Shown: positions 520 to 9,576 of the stretch, piece after piece
How positions within the stretch are numbered: position 1 is the first letter of the stretch
Layout: the number at the start of each line of letters is the position of its first letter
Origin: a virus
Lineage: Duplodnaviria; Heunggongvirae; Uroviricota; Caudoviricetes
IMG/VR virus record: IMGVR_UViG_2713896903_000008
DNA: 11,127 nucleotides
Strand: one strand, 5' to 3'
Notes under the pieces: generated by a model
What the model was told of the DNA's origin: nothing
Database searches by the model: none
Seen by the model: the letters and a program-made list of their open reading frames with translations, nothing else
Translations under genes and position numbers: made by a program

Positions 520-1302
520 TTACCCCCTGAAGCCTGGCGGGATCGCACTGTCCGGCAACGAGACGGTGTTAACCTGCCGAGGCAACGTCTCCGGTCGAAC
601 GCCTTTCGGCGCGAACAAGCCCTGGTATTCGTTGGCGATGCTGTGTCGAATCACCTGCTCAGGGGTAAAACCCTGCTGGCGGAATTTTTCCAGTTCCCGT
701 ATCGCCCCGTTAGCGCCCTGCTCCGTTCGAATCGGTTTTCGCAATGCCTGCCTGAACCGGACCCACTCATGCCAGAGTGTTTCCGGCAACCAATCGGGCA
801 ACTCAATAGCCTCCGGCTCGAATTTTTTAGATGCTCGTTTTTGGCGAGGGGGATTTAGGGGGAGATCAGTATTTATATCTTCCTCTTCCTCTGGTAACGC
901 TTTTTGATCCGTTTGTGTAACGCTGGCAGCGTTACCTTTTCGTTTCAGTTCGCGTATTTTTGTAACCCTCTCGTTTGTAATCGCCCGTTTTTTAGAGCTT
1001 TTTCCGTTATGACGTTCAAAGTTAGGTAGAGAAAGCCCACCGTTATTTTCGACCAGCCATCCAACCTGAATTAACGCATCAGCAAAACCAGCCATAAAAG
1101 TGATGCGATCTATTGCACTTTTTGTAACGCCGCGAGCGTTACACTCTGCGTTACCGTCTATCATTTGTTGATCCGCCCATGCCCAGAAGCGAATGACTTT
1201 CCCTAATGCGGCATCTGGATCAATATTCAGAATCTCAGCAAGCCTGAATATTTCCGGCTTATCCGGCGTAATAACCTCGAGCTTTATCCAGTTTGAAGCC
1301 AT
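520..1302 (-). CDS. ydaU: Putative phage replication-initiation protein (YdaU-like, lambda O position), 260 aa
   Basis: Complete 260-aa ORF between ydaT and the DnaC-like loader. ATG at 1302 preceded by GGTGA Shine-Dalgarno. It has an N-terminal globular part, a K/E-rich linker (KALPEEEEDINTD) and a C-terminal part. Assignment is by synteny and general resemblance, not a verified alignment. Confidence 0.7.
   Translation of the reverse strand: MASNWIKLEVITPDKPEIFRLAEILNIDPDAALGKVIRFWAWADQQMIDGNAECNARGVTKSAIDRITFMAGFADALIQVGWLVENNGGLSLPNFERHNGKSSKKRAITNERVTKIRELKRKGNAASVTQTDQKALPEEEEDINTDLPLNPPRQKRASKKFEPEAIELPDWLPETLWHEWVRFRQALRKPIRTEQGANGAIRELEKFRQQGFTPEQVIRHSIANEYQGLFAPKGVRPETLPRQVNTVSLPDSAIPPGFRG
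916..936. repeat. 21-bp dyad-symmetric element copy 1 (perfect core GTAACGCTG-G-CAGCGTTAC at 917-935), inside ydaU
   Basis: Read directly from the sequence; one of three copies of TGTAACGC-N5-GCGTTACA (see finding). Confidence 0.6.
1123..1143. repeat. 21-bp dyad-symmetric element copy 2 (TGTAACGC-cgcga-GCGTTACA), inside ydaU
   Basis: Read directly from the sequence; 8-bp perfect arms with 5-bp spacer. Confidence 0.6.
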
Positions 1303-1379: not shown

Positions 1380-1802
1380 TCAATGCACTACGACAGAATC
1401 GCCGGGCGACCCACCACCGCTGAAATGTGCTTTCCGGTAAACGGCCTGGACTGCATCATCATGCGCATCAATTGCCGTACTCAACGCTTCCTGCGCCGCC
1501 AGTAATGCACGGCGTTCCAGGGTATCGAAGATACAGAGTCGGTGACGCAGCTCGCGCGGAAGAATTGCCAGAACCGCAGGGATCAGTTTCTGAATTTTTT
1601 CCCTTTGCGCTTTCGTTTCACCTTTCAACCAACGGTGATAGATATTCTGCTGATTGTTCCAGTCCTTGCCAGGCACCAGGGGCAATTCGCCGCCCCCCTG
1701 GCGCAGATATTCTTCAGTAATTGCGTTAGCGACCCACGCCTGCCCTTTTTCAGATGCCAGGGCCAACAACACTGATTCGATATGCTCATGCCTGATTTTC
1801 AT
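1380..1802 (-). CDS. ydaT: Rac-prophage YdaT-family protein (toxic / CII-position protein), 140 aa
   Basis: 140-aa ORF starting MKIRHEHIESVLLALASEKGQAWVANAITEEYLRQGGGELP, recognised as YdaT. Its ATG overlaps the stop of the upstream Cro-like gene (ATGA overlap at 1799-1802), implying translational coupling. Confidence 0.8.
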   Translation of the reverse strand: MKIRHEHIESVLLALASEKGQAWVANAITEEYLRQGGGELPLVPGKDWNNQQNIYHRWLKGETKAQREKIQKLIPAVLAILPRELRHRLCIFDTLERRALLAAQEALSTAIDAHDDAVQAVYRKAHFSGGGSPGDSVVVH

Positions 1803-2044
1803 GAATCAACCGCTCCTATGCTGTTTTCGCTATGCTTACCGTCTGGGGGGAATACATCGTCAAGTCCACAATGAGCACCAAGCCGATTAAGGGTGGAAAC
1901 AATTTTTCTGCACTCTTCTAGCCCAGGAGTACGAAAATTTGCTTCGTAATTTGCCAGTCGGCTTTGTATCCACCCTAACTGAACAGCAAGTTGTCTTTGA
2001 GACAACCCAAGCTGTTTTCGATATGTTGAAATTTTGTTCATCAT
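1799..2044 (-). CDS. Cro-like HTH (XRE-family) regulator, 81 aa (YdaS position)
   Basis: Tandem ATG ATG at 2044/2041 preceded by AGGAGG (plus 'cctcct' 2047-2052). HTH segment LGLSQRQLAVQLGWIQSRLANYEA. Divergent from the repressor gene across a ~95-bp operator region. Start could be 2041. Confidence 0.8.
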   Translation of the reverse strand: MMNKISTYRKQLGLSQRQLAVQLGWIQSRLANYEANFRTPGLEECRKIVSTLNRLGAHCGLDDVFPPDGKHSENSIGAVDS

Positions 2045-2587: not shown

Positions 2588-2640
2588 GTCCATCAAAAAT
2601 CCAAAAACAACATTGCTCACATATTGAGTTGACAAATCAC

Positions 2641-2653
2641 TCACGATATGTGA
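2641..2653. promoter_or_regulatory. Third copy of the immunity operator, inverted (TCACG-ata-TGTGA = reverse complement of TCACA-tat-CGTGA), just downstream of a consensus -35 TTGACA (2629-2634)
   Basis: Read directly from the sequence. Its position relative to TTGACA places the operator over the spacer/-10 of a plus-strand promoter aimed at ydaG-ydaF, i.e. a PL-like position. Confidence 0.5.
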
Positions 2654-2834
2654 GCATTTGCCATATCCAAACAACGCCCCACCAGAGAACGGCAGGACAA
2701 TACCTTGAGTTATCCAGCCACTGAACAGGGCTAAGTAGCCAGCCTGAGGCATACGAACATGACGGCAGTTGTTGATTGATACAAAGCGCAGTAGATAAAA
2801 CGTTCCGCCACCCGGCGTTAAGGGGAGAGATAAG

Positions 2835-2969
2835 ATGGTGCATTACGAAGTAGTTCAGTATTTGATGGATTGTTGCGGCATCACTTACAACCAGGCTGTG
2901 CAGGCTTTACGCAGCAACGACTGGGATCTCTGGCAGGCAGAAGCCTCTATCCGCAACAACAAGATGTGA
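2835..2969 (+). CDS. ydaG: Small protein YdaG-like, 44 aa (below ORF-track cutoff); predicted three-helix UBA-like fold
   Basis: ATG 2835 preceded by GGGGAGAG Shine-Dalgarno; translation MVHYEVVQYLMDCCGITYNQAVQALRSNDWDLWQAEASIRNNKM; stop TGA 2967-2969. Length and position match what I recall for Rac ydaG. Confidence 0.6.
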   Translation: MVHYEVVQYLMDCCGITYNQAVQALRSNDWDLWQAEASIRNNKM

Positions 2970-2979
2970 GGTGCGAAAA

Positions 2980-3135
2980 ATGCAAAAAATCGACCTCGGC
3001 AATAACGAATCCATTGTGTGCGGCGTGTTCCCCAACCAAGATGGAACGTTCACTGCTATGACGTATACCAAAAGCAAAACATTTAAAACAGAAACTGGTG
3101 CGCGCCGATGGTTGGAGAAGCACACAGTAAGCTAA
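2980..3135 (+). CDS. ydaF: Small basic protein YdaF-like, 51 aa (below ORF-track cutoff)
   Basis: ATG 2980 preceded by GAGGTG; translation MQKIDLGNNESIVCGVFPNQDGTFTAMTYTKSKTFKTETGARRWLEKHTVS; stop TAA 3133-3135. It lies 10 nt after the ydaG stop and overlaps the convergent sieB stop by 4 bp. Confidence 0.6.
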   Translation: MQKIDLGNNESIVCGVFPNQDGTFTAMTYTKSKTFKTETGARRWLEKHTVS

Positions 3136-3620
3136 CGATTAAAACGTCTACTCCTGCTGTTCCAGAATAACTTCATAAAATGGGAGTATTTTTCGGTGAC
3201 GAGATAATAAGAACAGTTTGCGCTATCACTCTGATGTTGAATGATGCCCTTCCGTTCTAATTTTTTCATAACCGGGTTACGGCAAGGAGAAGTGATAATA
3301 AGATTTCCTGTTTTAAGGAAATCTTTAAATACAGCGATTTCTTTCTCAGATAAACGAAGCAATACTCGTTGCTCTGGTAGTAATGAATAATGCTTTTGAA
3401 TATGTGCTCGCAATCTTGAGAAGGAAATGGCGACCACGAAAGAAAAGGCAAAAACGATAATCTGAAAGAGCCAAGGTATTTCAGTATAAGCATTGAATGC
3501 GACAGTAAACTCTTTCGGTATCAGCCCGAGAGTGAGACCAAAAATGATAATCGTATACATAAGTCTTTCGAGTGGCTCGTTAGCAAAAAGTTTCAACAAT
3601 GGAGTAAATACATCCAACAT
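3132..3620 (-). CDS. sieB: Superinfection exclusion protein B (SieB), 162 aa, membrane protein
   Basis: Translation from ATG 3620: MLDVFTPLLKLFANEPLERLMYTIIIFGLTLGLIPKEF, recognised as SieB with hydrophobic segments. The track ORF extends to 3743 (203 aa), but the 41 extra codons run through GC-rich hairpin sequence and look non-coding. Confidence 0.85.
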   Translation of the reverse strand: MLDVFTPLLKLFANEPLERLMYTIIIFGLTLGLIPKEFTVAFNAYTEIPWLFQIIVFAFSFVVAISFSRLRAHIQKHYSLLPEQRVLLRLSEKEIAVFKDFLKTGNLIITSPCRNPVMKKLERKGIIQHQSDSANCSYYLVTEKYSHFMKLFWNSRSRRFNR

Positions 3621-3838
3621 ATCAATAACTCTCAACTGTAAGGGTATTGAAATGTTAACACAAGCTCTCGCTGTAGGGGTATAGCCGAGACCACCGAAGC
3701 CCGGAGGTGGTGAAATAAAACCGGGCACAACACGAAGGCGCATTTCCGATATCCATAAAGAGTCGGTCTTGTCTGTTAAATTTAAATGGTGGGAGTGCGC
3801 CTCCGGTTGTAAATAACGACATTGCTGTGTGTAGTCCT

Positions 3839-3886
3839 GGCGGCATCAGTTTTTTTCTTGAAGTTCGGCTGATGTCCGCCCTTTTT
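3839..3886 (+). terminator. Terminator-like GC-rich hairpin with T-run in the sieB-kilR intergenic region
   Basis: GGCGGCATCAG (3839-3849) pairs with CTGATG-T-CCGCC (3869-3880): 11 bp with one bulged T, 19-nt loop, followed by CTTTTT (3881-3886). Only the plus strand has the U-run. Confidence 0.35.
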
Positions 3887-4060
3887 AAAGTGAATTTTGT
3901 GATGCGGTGAATGCGGCTAAGCGCACGCGGAACAGTTAAAGCTAAAAACAGTGTTATGGGTGGATTCTCTGTATCCGGCGTTAATTGTTAACTGGTTAAC
4001 GTCACCTGGAGGCACCAGGCACCGCATCGACAAAATTCATTTGTAAAAATGGAGATAATT

Positions 4061-4282
4061 ATGATTACTCATCACTTCGGAACTGATGAAATACCACGTC
4101 AGTGTGTAACTCCTGGCGATTATGTTCTTCATGAAGGCCGGACATATATCGCCTCGGCAAACAATATAAAAAAGCGAAAACTTTATATTCGTAGCCTGAC
4201 CACAAAAACATGCATTTCTGACTGCATGGTTAAAGTCTTCCTCGGTAGTGATGGTTTACCTGTAAAAGCGGAGTCATGGTGA
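4061..4282 (+). CDS. kilR: KilR, Rac-prophage cell-division (FtsZ) inhibitor, 73 aa
   Basis: ATG 4061 with GGAG 5 nt upstream; translation [46 protein letters not shown], recognised as KilR. The track ORF start at 4049 lacks a Shine-Dalgarno. Confidence 0.85.
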
Positions 4283-8027: not shown

Positions 8028-9136
8028 TGGAGAACCTGACCATGCAAAATACCAATATCATCACGACAGAGCAGACACCAAATACCATTTCTGCCAGTAA
8101 CACTATTTTTAACGTTCAGGCGTTGACGCAACTTCAGGAAGTAGCCGGGTTGATGTCACAGGCCACCGTCACAGTTCCCGATCACCTTCGCGGAAAACCT
8201 GCCGACTGCATGGCAATCATCATGCAAGCCATGCAATGGGGCATGAACCCCTACGCTGTGGCTCAGAAAACACACCTGGTAAACGGAGTTCTGGGTTATG
8301 AAGCACAACTGGTTAACGCTGTGATCTCTAGCTCAAGTGCAATTGTAGGCCGCTTCCATTACAAGTACGAGGGAGACTGGGAGAAATGCTCTCGCACCCG
8401 AGTGGAGACCGTTAAGAAAACGGCCAAAGGAGGCGGAATCTATGAGAAAAAAGAAACGATCCCATGTTGGACCAGTGAAGATGAGTATGGTCTATCAGTT
8501 CGAGTTGGTGCAGTTCTTCGCGGTGAAAGTGAGATTACCTGGGGAGAACCGGTGTTTCTTTCCAGCGTGATTACGCGTAATTCTCCTTTATGGACCTCAA
8601 ACCCGAAACAACAGCTCGCCTATCTGGCGTTGAAATACTGGGCTCGCCTTTATTGTCCTGACGTCATCCTGGGCGTGTATACCCCCGACGAACTGGAAGA
8701 GCCACAGGAAAAAATCATTAATCCGGTTCAGGAACATAAAAACACATCAGCCTGCCGTGCGGAACGTGAAACAACAATTATTGAGCAGGATGCCGGGGAA
8801 AACTGGATCGATGCTTTCCGTAAACGTATTGAGCAAGCACAAAGCACCGAAGAAACAACGGCACTTCGCCAGGAAGTAGAAGCTCATAAAAATACACTTG
8901 GTGCTCTCTACACAGAACTTAAAGGAAAAGTGGTTCAGCGTCATCACCGTCTTAATGCTATTGCCCGTATCGAGAAGATGATAAATGACCTGCCTTCATC
9001 AGGTGATCCAGAAGCAGAACAAAAATTTACTGCACTGGAAAATACGCTGAATGCTGCACGACCACATTTAGGAGAATTATATGAGGCGTATAAAACGACA
9101 CTGACAGACCTGAAACCAGAATATATCGGCTCCTGA
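8027..9136 (+). CDS. Single-strand annealing protein of the RecT/Redbeta superfamily (Redbeta/Bet-like core plus ~140-aa helical C-terminal extension), 369 aa
   Basis: Core motifs resemble lambda Redbeta: AIIMQAMQWGMNPY versus Redbeta ALLIVANQYGLNPW, and SPLWTSNPKQQLAYLALKYWARLYCPDVILGVYTPDE versus GPWQSHPKRMLRHKAMIQCARLAFGFAGIYDKDE (compared from memory). Alternative start ATG 8042 (MQNTNI) has GGAG 9 nt upstream; the 8027 start is translationally coupled to recE. Confidence 0.75.
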   Translation: MENLTMQNTNIITTEQTPNTISASNTIFNVQALTQLQEVAGLMSQATVTVPDHLRGKPADCMAIIMQAMQWGMNPYAVAQKTHLVNGVLGYEAQLVNAVISSSSAIVGRFHYKYEGDWEKCSRTRVETVKKTAKGGGIYEKKETIPCWTSEDEYGLSVRVGAVLRGESEITWGEPVFLSSVITRNSPLWTSNPKQQLAYLALKYWARLYCPDVILGVYTPDELEEPQEKIINPVQEHKNTSACRAERETTIIEQDAGENWIDAFRKRIEQAQSTEETTALRQEVEAHKNTLGALYTELKGKVVQRHHRLNAIARIEKMINDLPSSGDPEAEQKFTALENTLNAARPHLGELYEAYKTTLTDLKPEYIGS

Positions 9137-9200: not shown

Positions 9201-9395
9201 ATGCGATATGAAAAAGTTAAGCCATGTCCGTTTTGTGGTTGTCCATCTGTAACAGTGAAAGCCATTTCAGGGTGTTACCGGGCAAAATGCAACGGCTGCG
9301 AATCCCGAACTGGCTATGGTGGAAGTGAGAAAGAAGCCCTCGAAAGATGGAATAAACGAACCGCTGAAAATATTAATGGAGGCATCTATGTATAA
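9201..9395 (+). CDS. ralR: RalR, type I toxin (non-specific DNase / restriction alleviation), 64 aa
   Basis: Translation MRYEKVKPCPFCGCPSVTVKAISGCYRAKCNGCESRTGYGGSEKEALERWNKRT, recognised as RalR; Cys-rich. The track ORF start at 9186 would add 5 codons without a Shine-Dalgarno. Confidence 0.8.
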   Translation: MRYEKVKPCPFCGCPSVTVKAISGCYRAKCNGCESRTGYGGSEKEALERWNKRTAENINGGIYV

Positions 9396-9576
9396 AATTA
9401 CCGCCACAATTGAAAAGGAAGGAGGTACTCCTACTAACTGGACAAGATATTCAAAATCTAAACTAACGAAATCAGAATGCGAAAAAATGCTCTCAGGGAA
9501 AAAAGAAGCAGGCGTTTCCAGAGAGCAAAATGTAAAACTGATGAATTTTAATTGCGAGAAACTTCAGTCCTGGTAA
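9388..9576 (+). CDS. ydaC: YdaC-like small protein, 62 aa, function unknown
   Basis: ATG 9388 preceded by GGAGG (9378-9382); translation MYKITATIEKEGGTPTNWTRYSKSKLTKSECEKMLSGKKEAG. Overlaps the ralR 3' end by 8 nt in another frame. Confidence 0.65.
   Translation: MYKITATIEKEGGTPTNWTRYSKSKLTKSECEKMLSGKKEAGVSREQNVKLMNFNCEKLQSW

Follow-up and report, generated by a model that had tools for sequence, protein, structure and literature searches.

The ydaG-ydaF gene pair as probable first cistrons of the early-left operon in a Rac-type lambdoid prophage

Several lambdoid systems describe what can follow a lysogenic repressor gene. In phage lambda, genes and sites are ordered cI, rexA, rexB, oL3-oL1/pL, nutL, N on the lambda map, with rexAB lying between cI and oL/pL and being co-transcribed with cI in the lysogen, and with N standing right after oL/pL and its leader. 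In the Rac prophage of Escherichia coli K-12, the annotated order is racR, ydaG, ydaF, sieB, kilS, kilR, ydaE, racC, recE, recT, ralR/ralA, xisR, intR. Lowering of racR expression by the C protein of Csp231I raises ydaF, ydaG, ydaE and racC about 40-fold, with an increase of more than 70-fold for kilR, ydaC and ralA (PMC6765115); this result is restated in a report that describes ydaFG as an operon close to racR with an undetermined function (PMC11014345). Derepression of ydaG upon racR silencing, together with that of kilR, recE and recT, has been described as well (bioRxiv 10.64898/2026.09.06.749655; kilR also in PMC6765115). In the case of the Qin prophage, the promoter dicBp, located between dicA and ydfA (a gene of the DUF1391 family), is repressed 22-fold by DicA and has been shown experimentally to produce a polycistronic ydfABC-dicF transcript; dicB and ydfDE are assigned to the same operon, longer species not having been detected (bioRxiv 10.1101/2023.04.14.536235; PMC5069750). 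Here we analyse a stretch of 11,127 nucleotides (nt) of viral DNA, the IMG/VR record IMGVR_UViG_2713896903_000008 (hereafter the window), and in particular two short open reading frames (ORFs) on its plus strand, at 2835-2969 and 2980-3135, which lie beyond the lysogenic repressor gene. Taking identity, operon and timing together, we consider it probable that they are ydaG and ydaF, the promoter-proximal early-left cistrons of a Rac-type lambdoid prophage.

Identity and coding status of the two ORFs

Both ORFs start with ATG, and they encode proteins of 44 and 51 residues. The first protein is 93% identical to K-12 YdaG (b1355) and matches phrog_14709 (E=3e-36), and the second is 98% identical to K-12 YdaF (b4527) and matches Pfam DUF1391 (E=1e-28) and phrog_751 (E=2e-34). 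Because of these identities and of the same gene order, the sequences identify the pair as ydaG and ydaF of the Rac prophage, that is, as already annotated, uncharacterised K-12 genes. By its surrounding genes, the window is a Rac-type lambdoid prophage: the synteny of repressor, ydaG, ydaF, sieB, kilR, ydaE, racC and recET is kept in over 70 loci, and the K-12 'ydaFG' unit beside racR is identical to the one described here in its order, in the 10-nt type of spacing and in its neighbours through int. K-12 Rac differs in the immunity module, the window having a DicA/C2-like repressor instead of RacR and different operators, and the leaders that precede ydaG are only about 76% identical, the window carrying the minority variant. 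The match of this repressor to the DicA subfamily of NCBIfam falls below the cut-off of that model, and its gene has the same direction as ydaG and ydaF.

The Shine-Dalgarno sequence of ydaG is GGGGAG at 2822-2827, 7 nt 5' of the ATG, and that of ydaF is GAGG at 2968-2971, which overlaps the ydaG stop codon, the two ORFs being separated by 10 nt (2970-2979). An initial annotation of this DNA, made from the letters alone, had described two tightly spaced ORFs with good Shine-Dalgarno sequences and a basic second product rich in Lys and Arg at its C-terminus. The coordinates, both ribosome-binding motifs and the gap are all borne out, and so is the composition of YdaF, whose C-terminal 24 residues contain four Lys and two Arg versus two Glu.

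The coding status of the pair was assessed in a comparison set of 80 IMG/VR loci plus K-12 and other records, in which 74 of 75 copies of ydaG are intact and all 83 ydaF-family copies read 50-51 residues. Changes were counted along a minimum spanning tree of the distinct haplotypes. In ydaG they are 26 synonymous and 25 non-synonymous (omega ~0.22; synonymous excess, P=1.5e-7), and in ydaF 94 and 46, respectively (omega ~0.13; P=7e-32). The remaining two frames of each gene give omega values of ~0.6-2.9, whereas known genes in the same test (kilR, 0.20; sieB, 0.19; racC, 0.23) resemble the annotated frames. Since the synonymous excess is confined to the annotated frame and ydaG is near-universally intact, ydaG and ydaF are, to judge from their substitutions, real protein-coding genes, under purifying selection in that frame only.

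The two genes differ in how widely they occur. In 5426 complete E. coli genomes, ydaG is found in 1484 (27%), at 1487 places and nearly always in single copy, and the contiguous ydaG-ydaF junction is present in every one of these 1484; ydaF-family genes are found in 4198 genomes (77%), at 8711 places and in up to seven copies per genome. Whatever the immunity type, the first or second cistron after pL is always a DUF1391 gene, and this holds for the phages mEp460_ev081 and Tritos too. It is thus YdaF that stays constant, YdaG being optional. In three loci that lack ydaG, the same leader, with its small hairpin and an AAGGGGA Shine-Dalgarno sequence, runs straight into ydaF, and in two others a minus-strand zinc-ribbon ORF, weakly Lar-like, replaces ydaG in the interval; just 5' of ydaF, the locus behaves like a slot for variable cargo. 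In the window, ydaG begins with AAGATGGTG and ends with AAGATGTGAGGTG, a short direct repeat (2832-2840 and 2961-2973) that could mediate its gain or loss.

With regard to host range, a word-indexed search with YdaG returned 18 clusters, all from Escherichia, and DUF1391 is confined to prophages of Escherichia, Shigella and Salmonella, with identities of at least 73%. A divergent copy with 47% identity was set aside as a frameshifted Qin remnant. DUF1391 genes with 64-98% identity also occur on five contigs labelled as Proteobacteria, Nanosynbacter, Collinsella and Veillonella bins and as a Sphingomonas isolate, probably through mis-binning or contamination with enterobacterial prophage DNA. 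Two phage records carry host labels that are likewise odd for an Escherichia-restricted module: in that of 'Actinobacillus phage vB_Apl-pPE4', the repressor end, oL/pL and a portion of the leader (query 1-330) are present at 98.5% identity, and that of Aeromonas phage AP1 (254 kb) contains 62 nt that match the region of the leader hairpin and ydaG start at 98% identity.

The selection data also bear on the notion that the ORFs matter only as translated leader ORFs, setting downstream expression or messenger RNA stability through functionless products. Such a role would fit genes that are very short, promoter-proximal and tightly coupled, one of which, ydaG, is dispensable in many relatives and has a protein model of only moderate confidence. 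It is hard to reconcile with purifying selection on the amino acids as strong as that on kilR and sieB and restricted to the annotated frame, or with a YdaF that is at least 73% identical across Escherichia, Shigella and Salmonella and has a confidently predicted fold, and we regard it as very unlikely.

Promoter, operators and leader upstream of ydaG

The interval between the repressor gene and ydaG contains the elements that define the position of the pair. The repressor transcript is predicted to stop at a strong terminator (2555-2585), with 15-nt arms that are 93% complementary and a hairpin of -19.4 kcal/mol (z -6.1) followed by U7. Further downstream, a putative early-left promoter of the sigma-70 type is formed by the -35 hexamer TTGACA (2629-2634), a 17-nt spacer and an extended -10 element, TGtGAGCAT, with GAGCAT as the -10 hexamer (2652-2657). 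This promoter is overlapped by a putative operator palindrome, CTCACGATATGTGAG, at 2640-2654, and an inverted repeat, TGCTCACATAT/ATATGTGAGCA, occupies 2614-2624 and 2646-2656. The operator motif recurs at 2063-2077 and 2112-2126, in the intergenic region between repressor and cro, where the relatives of CTCACGATATGTGAG read TTCACATTTCGTGAG and TTCACACATCGTGAT. In an alignment of the interval comprising 37 distinct versions, each immunity type has its own TTGAC-type -35 with a plausible -10, and the alignment puts all of these at one position, as illustrated by TTGACA-17-TATAGT and TTTACA-17-CATTAT; these promoters end a few bases 5' of the point at which all loci become alignable. In addition, across 1687 complete E. 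coli genomes the similarity to the window sets in at about 2662, a mosaic joint that coincides with the predicted start (~2664) of the operator-controlled early-left transcript. No terminator-like site was found on the plus strand from the promoter as far as the end of ydaF.

The interval equivalent to that of rex in lambda (2529-2613) contains the terminator only. Because the pair lies downstream of both the repressor terminator and an operator-covered promoter at a conserved place, we assign ydaG and ydaF, from the layout of these predicted signals, to the first cistrons of the early-left operon, in the slot of lambda N and not in a rex-like slot. The placement in a rex-like slot given by the initial annotation therefore does not hold, as the terminator and the promoter with its operators (2614-2657) separate the repressor gene from ydaG. 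The same annotation pointed to a different promoter, TTGTTG-17-TAGATA, at 2769-2797. Its letters are present, with three of six consensus bases in each hexamer and a -10 without the final T, and yet it stays under the threshold of a consensus promoter scan, in which the region is no richer in promoter-like sites than shuffled sequences. The element sits in the least conserved part of the leader, the majority, K-12-type leader having other letters there with its genes intact, and we have discarded it as a promoter.

Two related proposals depend on this anatomy, namely that the pair is exclusion or defence cargo expressed in the lysogen from a rexAB-like slot, or that it is a toxin-modulator pair. 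Proximity to the repressor, which lambda rexA and rexB share, and to sieB, a known exclusion gene, would suit such proposals, and so would the constant presence of ydaF beside ydaG and the opposite net charges of the two proteins. The cargo proposal is largely refuted by the location of the pair beyond the repressor terminator and under its own operator-covered promoter, which is not the place of lambda rexAB, genes with no homology to ydaG or ydaF. Moreover, the K-12 orthologues are silent until RacR falls (PMC6765115, PMC11014345), and as they are then derepressed about 40-fold along with kilR, ydaE and racC, they do not behave as lysogen-expressed cargo. Of the defence models of PADLOC, none matched YdaG, and AbiEi alone matched YdaF, at E=0.038. 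As for a toxin pair, the association is one-sided: all 1484 ydaG genomes have ydaF, and most ydaF-family genes stand without ydaG (8711 versus 1487 places). No toxin or antitoxin family matches either protein, and the literature searched contains no report of toxicity of one product being neutralised by the other. Neither proposal of the initial annotation is supported by these results, and we give them very little credence.

The early-left assignment suggests instead that the lysogen keeps the pair silent and that its products appear at once after derepression or infection, a timing that we infer from published transcriptomes covering the orthologues in K-12 and from the homologous operon of Qin (dicBp-ydfA-ydfB-ydfC-dicF-dicB-ydfD). 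This operon follows the same logic as the window, with repressor, promoter, small ORFs, a DicF-type RNA with its terminator, and a division inhibitor, and its ydfA is a DUF1391 homologue (84% over the tblastn-aligned region). It differs in lacking ydaG, ydfA being the first cistron, followed by ydfB and ydfC, neither of which resembles YdaG on inspection, and in having no sieB after the small ORFs, ahead of dicF. A similar series of repressor, DUF1391 gene, small ORFs, DicF, dicB and exonuclease VIII is seen in the phages mEp460_ev081 and Tritos, DicF being annotated as an RNA in Tritos only. According to the sequence of events that we propose, loss of the repressor would allow RNA polymerase to start at pL (~2664), the leader of about 170 nt would be transcribed, and ydaG and ydaF would be translated in turn. 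The transcript would then run on, antisense, through sieB to the DicF-like kilS RNA with its terminator, and from there to kilR, ydaE, racC and recET; the run-on past sieB is suggested by the gene layout and by the homology to Qin. The terminator of the DicF-like RNA (hairpin 3839-3880 followed by U5; -19.5 kcal/mol, z -2.5) is strong and precedes kilR, so early-left transcription must read through it to proceed toward kilR and recET.

In this regard, an N-like function has to be weighed. YdaF, with or without YdaG and the leader RNA, might let transcription pass the DicF/kilS terminator, and escape Rho-dependent termination as well, into kilR/dicB and recET, and the DUF1391 protein might be the early-operon regulator of N-less Rac/Qin-type phages, a folded, non-arginine-rich substitute for lambda N. 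We consider either claim improbable, even though the pair occupies the exact N slot, abutting the convergent sieB. This resembles lambda, in which N likewise stands immediately upstream of convergent sieB. Also in favour, the DUF1391 gene holds its constant place after pL in mEp460_ev081 and Tritos, in neither of which an N-like gene was found after the repressor, and kilR, recE and recT are derepressed on racR silencing (bioRxiv 10.64898/2026.09.06.749655; PMC6765115 for kilR) in spite of the strong terminator before kilR. In fold comparisons, YdaF has as its weak neighbours small domains that bind nucleic acids (AP2/ERF, dsRBD and YegP), and the leader is conserved: it exists in two variants, of which the K-12 type is the commoner, that are maintained across immunity types, with invariant blocks including GTAGCCAGCC.GAGGC, GAACATGACGGC and a CGCC-ACCC-GGCG hairpin that directly precedes the Shine-Dalgarno sequence, AAGGGGAG.

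The hallmarks of N are nevertheless missing. Lambda N is one disordered protein of 107 residues acting with boxA/boxB, whereas here there are two small proteins, both predicted to be folded and without sequence similarity to it. Neither has an N-terminal arginine-rich motif, YdaG and YdaF (51 residues) having two Arg each, none of them clustered N-terminally. No boxA-like element is matched in 1300-2900, which covers the leader and the pR side, where the abutting cro-like and cII-like genes leave no nutR interval. The leader folds no more stably than shuffled sequence (z +1.0) and has no match in Rfam, so that a put- or nut-like structured RNA was rejected, and the DicF/kilS terminator may simply leak. 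Thus, of the N-like regulator put forward in the initial annotation, the location as first gene after pL stands and the mechanistic signature does not. The literature on antitermination by Gp17 of mEp021 was set aside, as it concerns a different, non-lambdoid phage group with no bearing on this locus. We also observed a minus-strand terminator-like hairpin within the pL leader (2699..2675), the next one that sieB transcription would meet.

Predicted folds and proposed roles of YdaG and YdaF

Together, the selection analysis and the structural models show each ORF to encode a mini-protein under purifying selection that is predicted to fold independently. The AlphaFold2 model of YdaF, four beta strands and a C-terminal helix, is confident (predicted local distance difference test score, pLDDT, 86). 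No significant structural relative of it was found, and a relationship to AP2, the first of its weak fold neighbours, was dropped because hhalign gives it no support. The model of YdaG consists of three helices (residues 3-14, 18-26 and 30-42), with a mean pLDDT of 74 and a predicted template modelling score of 0.43, and a three-helix topology has been reported independently (PMC13348028).

A three-helix, UBA-like signature with resemblance to the EF-Ts N-terminal domain had been attributed to YdaG in the initial annotation. The first part stands in a restrained form. YdaG scores 23.7 bits against Pfam UBA_4 (E=4e-5), a small margin over the curated cut-off of 21.8, and this profile matches eight of ten YdaG family members at E<=0.01, the matches to UBA_8 and UBA_HYPK being below their cut-offs. 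In Foldseek searches of the PDB, UBA-type domains rank first (FAM100B, HYPK, NAC, EF-Ts and p47), although none of them is significant (all E>=1.9), and no PDB entry is found by sequence at E<=10. YdaG thus shares with UBA and UBA-like domains (UBA_4, UBA_8, the UBA of HYPK and the EF-Ts N-terminal domain) a length of about 40 residues and three predicted helices, and differs from them in being a stand-alone bacterial prophage protein without a known ubiquitin-like partner. Some intact alleles have Asp or Ser in place of the loop-1 residue Gly15. A three-helix mini-protein, as modelled, is supported, and 'UBA-like' is a plausible, if weakly supported, description of it.

The resemblance to EF-Ts itself does not survive closer comparison. 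If YdaG mimicked the EF-Ts N-terminus and bound EF-Tu, the presence of the EF-Ts and mitochondrial EF-Ts UBA domains among its ten best Foldseek matches would be explained, and the UBA-like profile match would be compatible with it, in a generic way. Those structural matches have E>=3, BLASTP of YdaG against the E. coli EF-Ts N-terminus gives no alignment at E<=100, and hhalign aligns five columns only (LMDCC/MMDCK) with a probability of 0.6%. The LMDCC pentapeptide closes helix 1 in the YdaG model, out of register with the helix-2 motif MMDCKKAL of EF-Ts, so the common MDC letters fall in different helices. We have discounted the similarity as a five-residue coincidence, and of all the functions discussed here, mimicry of EF-Ts appears to us the least likely. 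A yeast-evolved YdaG variant with four mutations is reported to inhibit Ubr1, wild-type YdaG being inactive (bioRxiv 10.1101/2025.03.22.644768), which says nothing about the native role of the protein.

What the two proteins do can be outlined only tentatively. They are too small for enzymes and have no enzyme matches, for which reason action by binding is the most likely mode, and they might be small binding proteins, accessory factors made at the start of the lytic or induction programme, comparable to the small pL products of lambda, Kil, CIII, Ral and Gam. Every early-left operon of the Rac/Qin type would share YdaF as a conserved core factor, a protein whose module of beta-sheet and helix, together with a basic C-terminal half, suits the binding of nucleic acid or of a host protein, and YdaG would be an Escherichia-specific add-on inserted between the leader Shine-Dalgarno sequence and ydaF, possibly a three-helix, UBA-like module for protein-protein interaction. 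We offer this step of the model as a possibility that is much less secure than the assignment of the genes to the early-left operon.

A number of points weigh against this overall reading. Neither promoter mapping, nor translation data, nor a phenotype for this locus was found in the searchable literature, nor any direct evidence of translation of ydaG or ydaF, such as ribosome profiling (Ribo-seq) or tagging. The timing of expression in the window is carried over from K-12 transcriptomes combined with sequence, and the leader may contain a weak constitutive promoter. With regard to function, the binding mechanism is held with low confidence, the fold matches of the two predicted structures are weak or inconsistent, and the YdaG model is only moderately confident. 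Finally, no distant homologues of YdaG outside Escherichia came out of a phmmer search that covered 1.84 billion representative proteins, a few long proteins matched over several short stretches being taken as spurious.

Neighbouring features and biological meaning

The features of the window are collected in Table 1. Downstream of the pair, the stop codons of ydaF and the convergent sieB overlap at 3132-3135 (CTAA). A sieB transcript made in the lysogen would cross ydaF and ydaG antisense, and this may damp leaky expression of the pair or cause transcriptional interference. The DicF-like RNA scores 39.1 bits, below the Rfam gathering score of 48, and K-12 annotates kilS at the same place; a sub-threshold STnc100-like match (3883-4068) is found just 5' of kilR. 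On the plus strand, kilR is followed by ydaE, racC, the recE-like ORF, recT, a Lar/RalR-like ORF, xis and int. Both the recE-like ORF and recT are much longer than their K-12 counterparts (2601 and 810 nt), the extra length of RecT being, as judged by eye, an apparent C-terminal extension. The RalA small RNA (sRNA) overlaps the Lar/RalR-like ORF, and the type I RalR/RalA module of Rac is therefore present.

Table 1. Features of the window, with positions counted from its first nucleotide (aa, amino acids; HTH, helix-turn-helix)
Feature	Position	Strand	Basis
Replication-organiser-like gene	520-1302	-	
ydaT/cII-like gene	1380-1802	-	
cro-like HTH gene, divergent from repressor	1802-2044	-	
Lysogenic repressor, DicA/C2-type HTH, 129 aa	2139-2528	+	Pfam HTH_31/HTH_3
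Predicted intrinsic terminator, bidirectional	2555-2585	both	Hairpin + U7
Putative pL/oL-type early-left promoter and operators	2614-2657	+	Motif repeat, alignment
Untranslated leader, conserved, ~170 nt	2664-2834	+	Alignment of 37 variants
ydaG orthologue, 44 aa, predicted three-helix mini-protein	2835-2969	+	93% to b1355
ydaF orthologue, 51 aa, DUF1391, predicted four strands and C-terminal helix	2980-3135	+	98% to b4527
sieB (superinfection exclusion B)	3132-3620	-	Pfam SieB, phrog_6399; 99% to K-12 SieB (tblastn)
DicF-like small RNA, position of K-12 kilS	about 3826-3887	+	Rfam DicF, 39.1 bits
kilR (FtsZ inhibitor)	4061-4282	+	NCBIfam PRK11354 (E=2e-46), phrog_294
recE-like exonuclease ORF, 1041 aa	4902-8027	+	
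recT, 369 aa	8027-9136	+	
Lar/RalR-like zinc-ribbon ORF, 69 aa	9186-9395		
RalA antitoxin sRNA	9394-9572	-	Rfam, 199 bits, above gathering score

All together, the pair is an already known one, made up of ordinary early prophage accessory genes, and the present reanalysis mainly corrects their context. As annotated y-genes of the best-studied bacterium, ydaG and ydaF matter little as found. The corrected context indicates that their phenotypes should be sought on induction or infection, in the expression of kilR and recET, in burst size or in the frequency of lysogenisation, and not in exclusion by the lysogen. The ubiquity of DUF1391 is striking: 77% of complete E. coli genomes carry the family, which invariably occupies a promoter-proximal place in the DicF/DicB/KilR/RecET operon. 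If the DUF1391 protein did control this operon by read-through, its constant promoter-proximal place in N-less phages would be accounted for, and this would explain how widespread, physiologically active cryptic-prophage operons pass their internal terminator.

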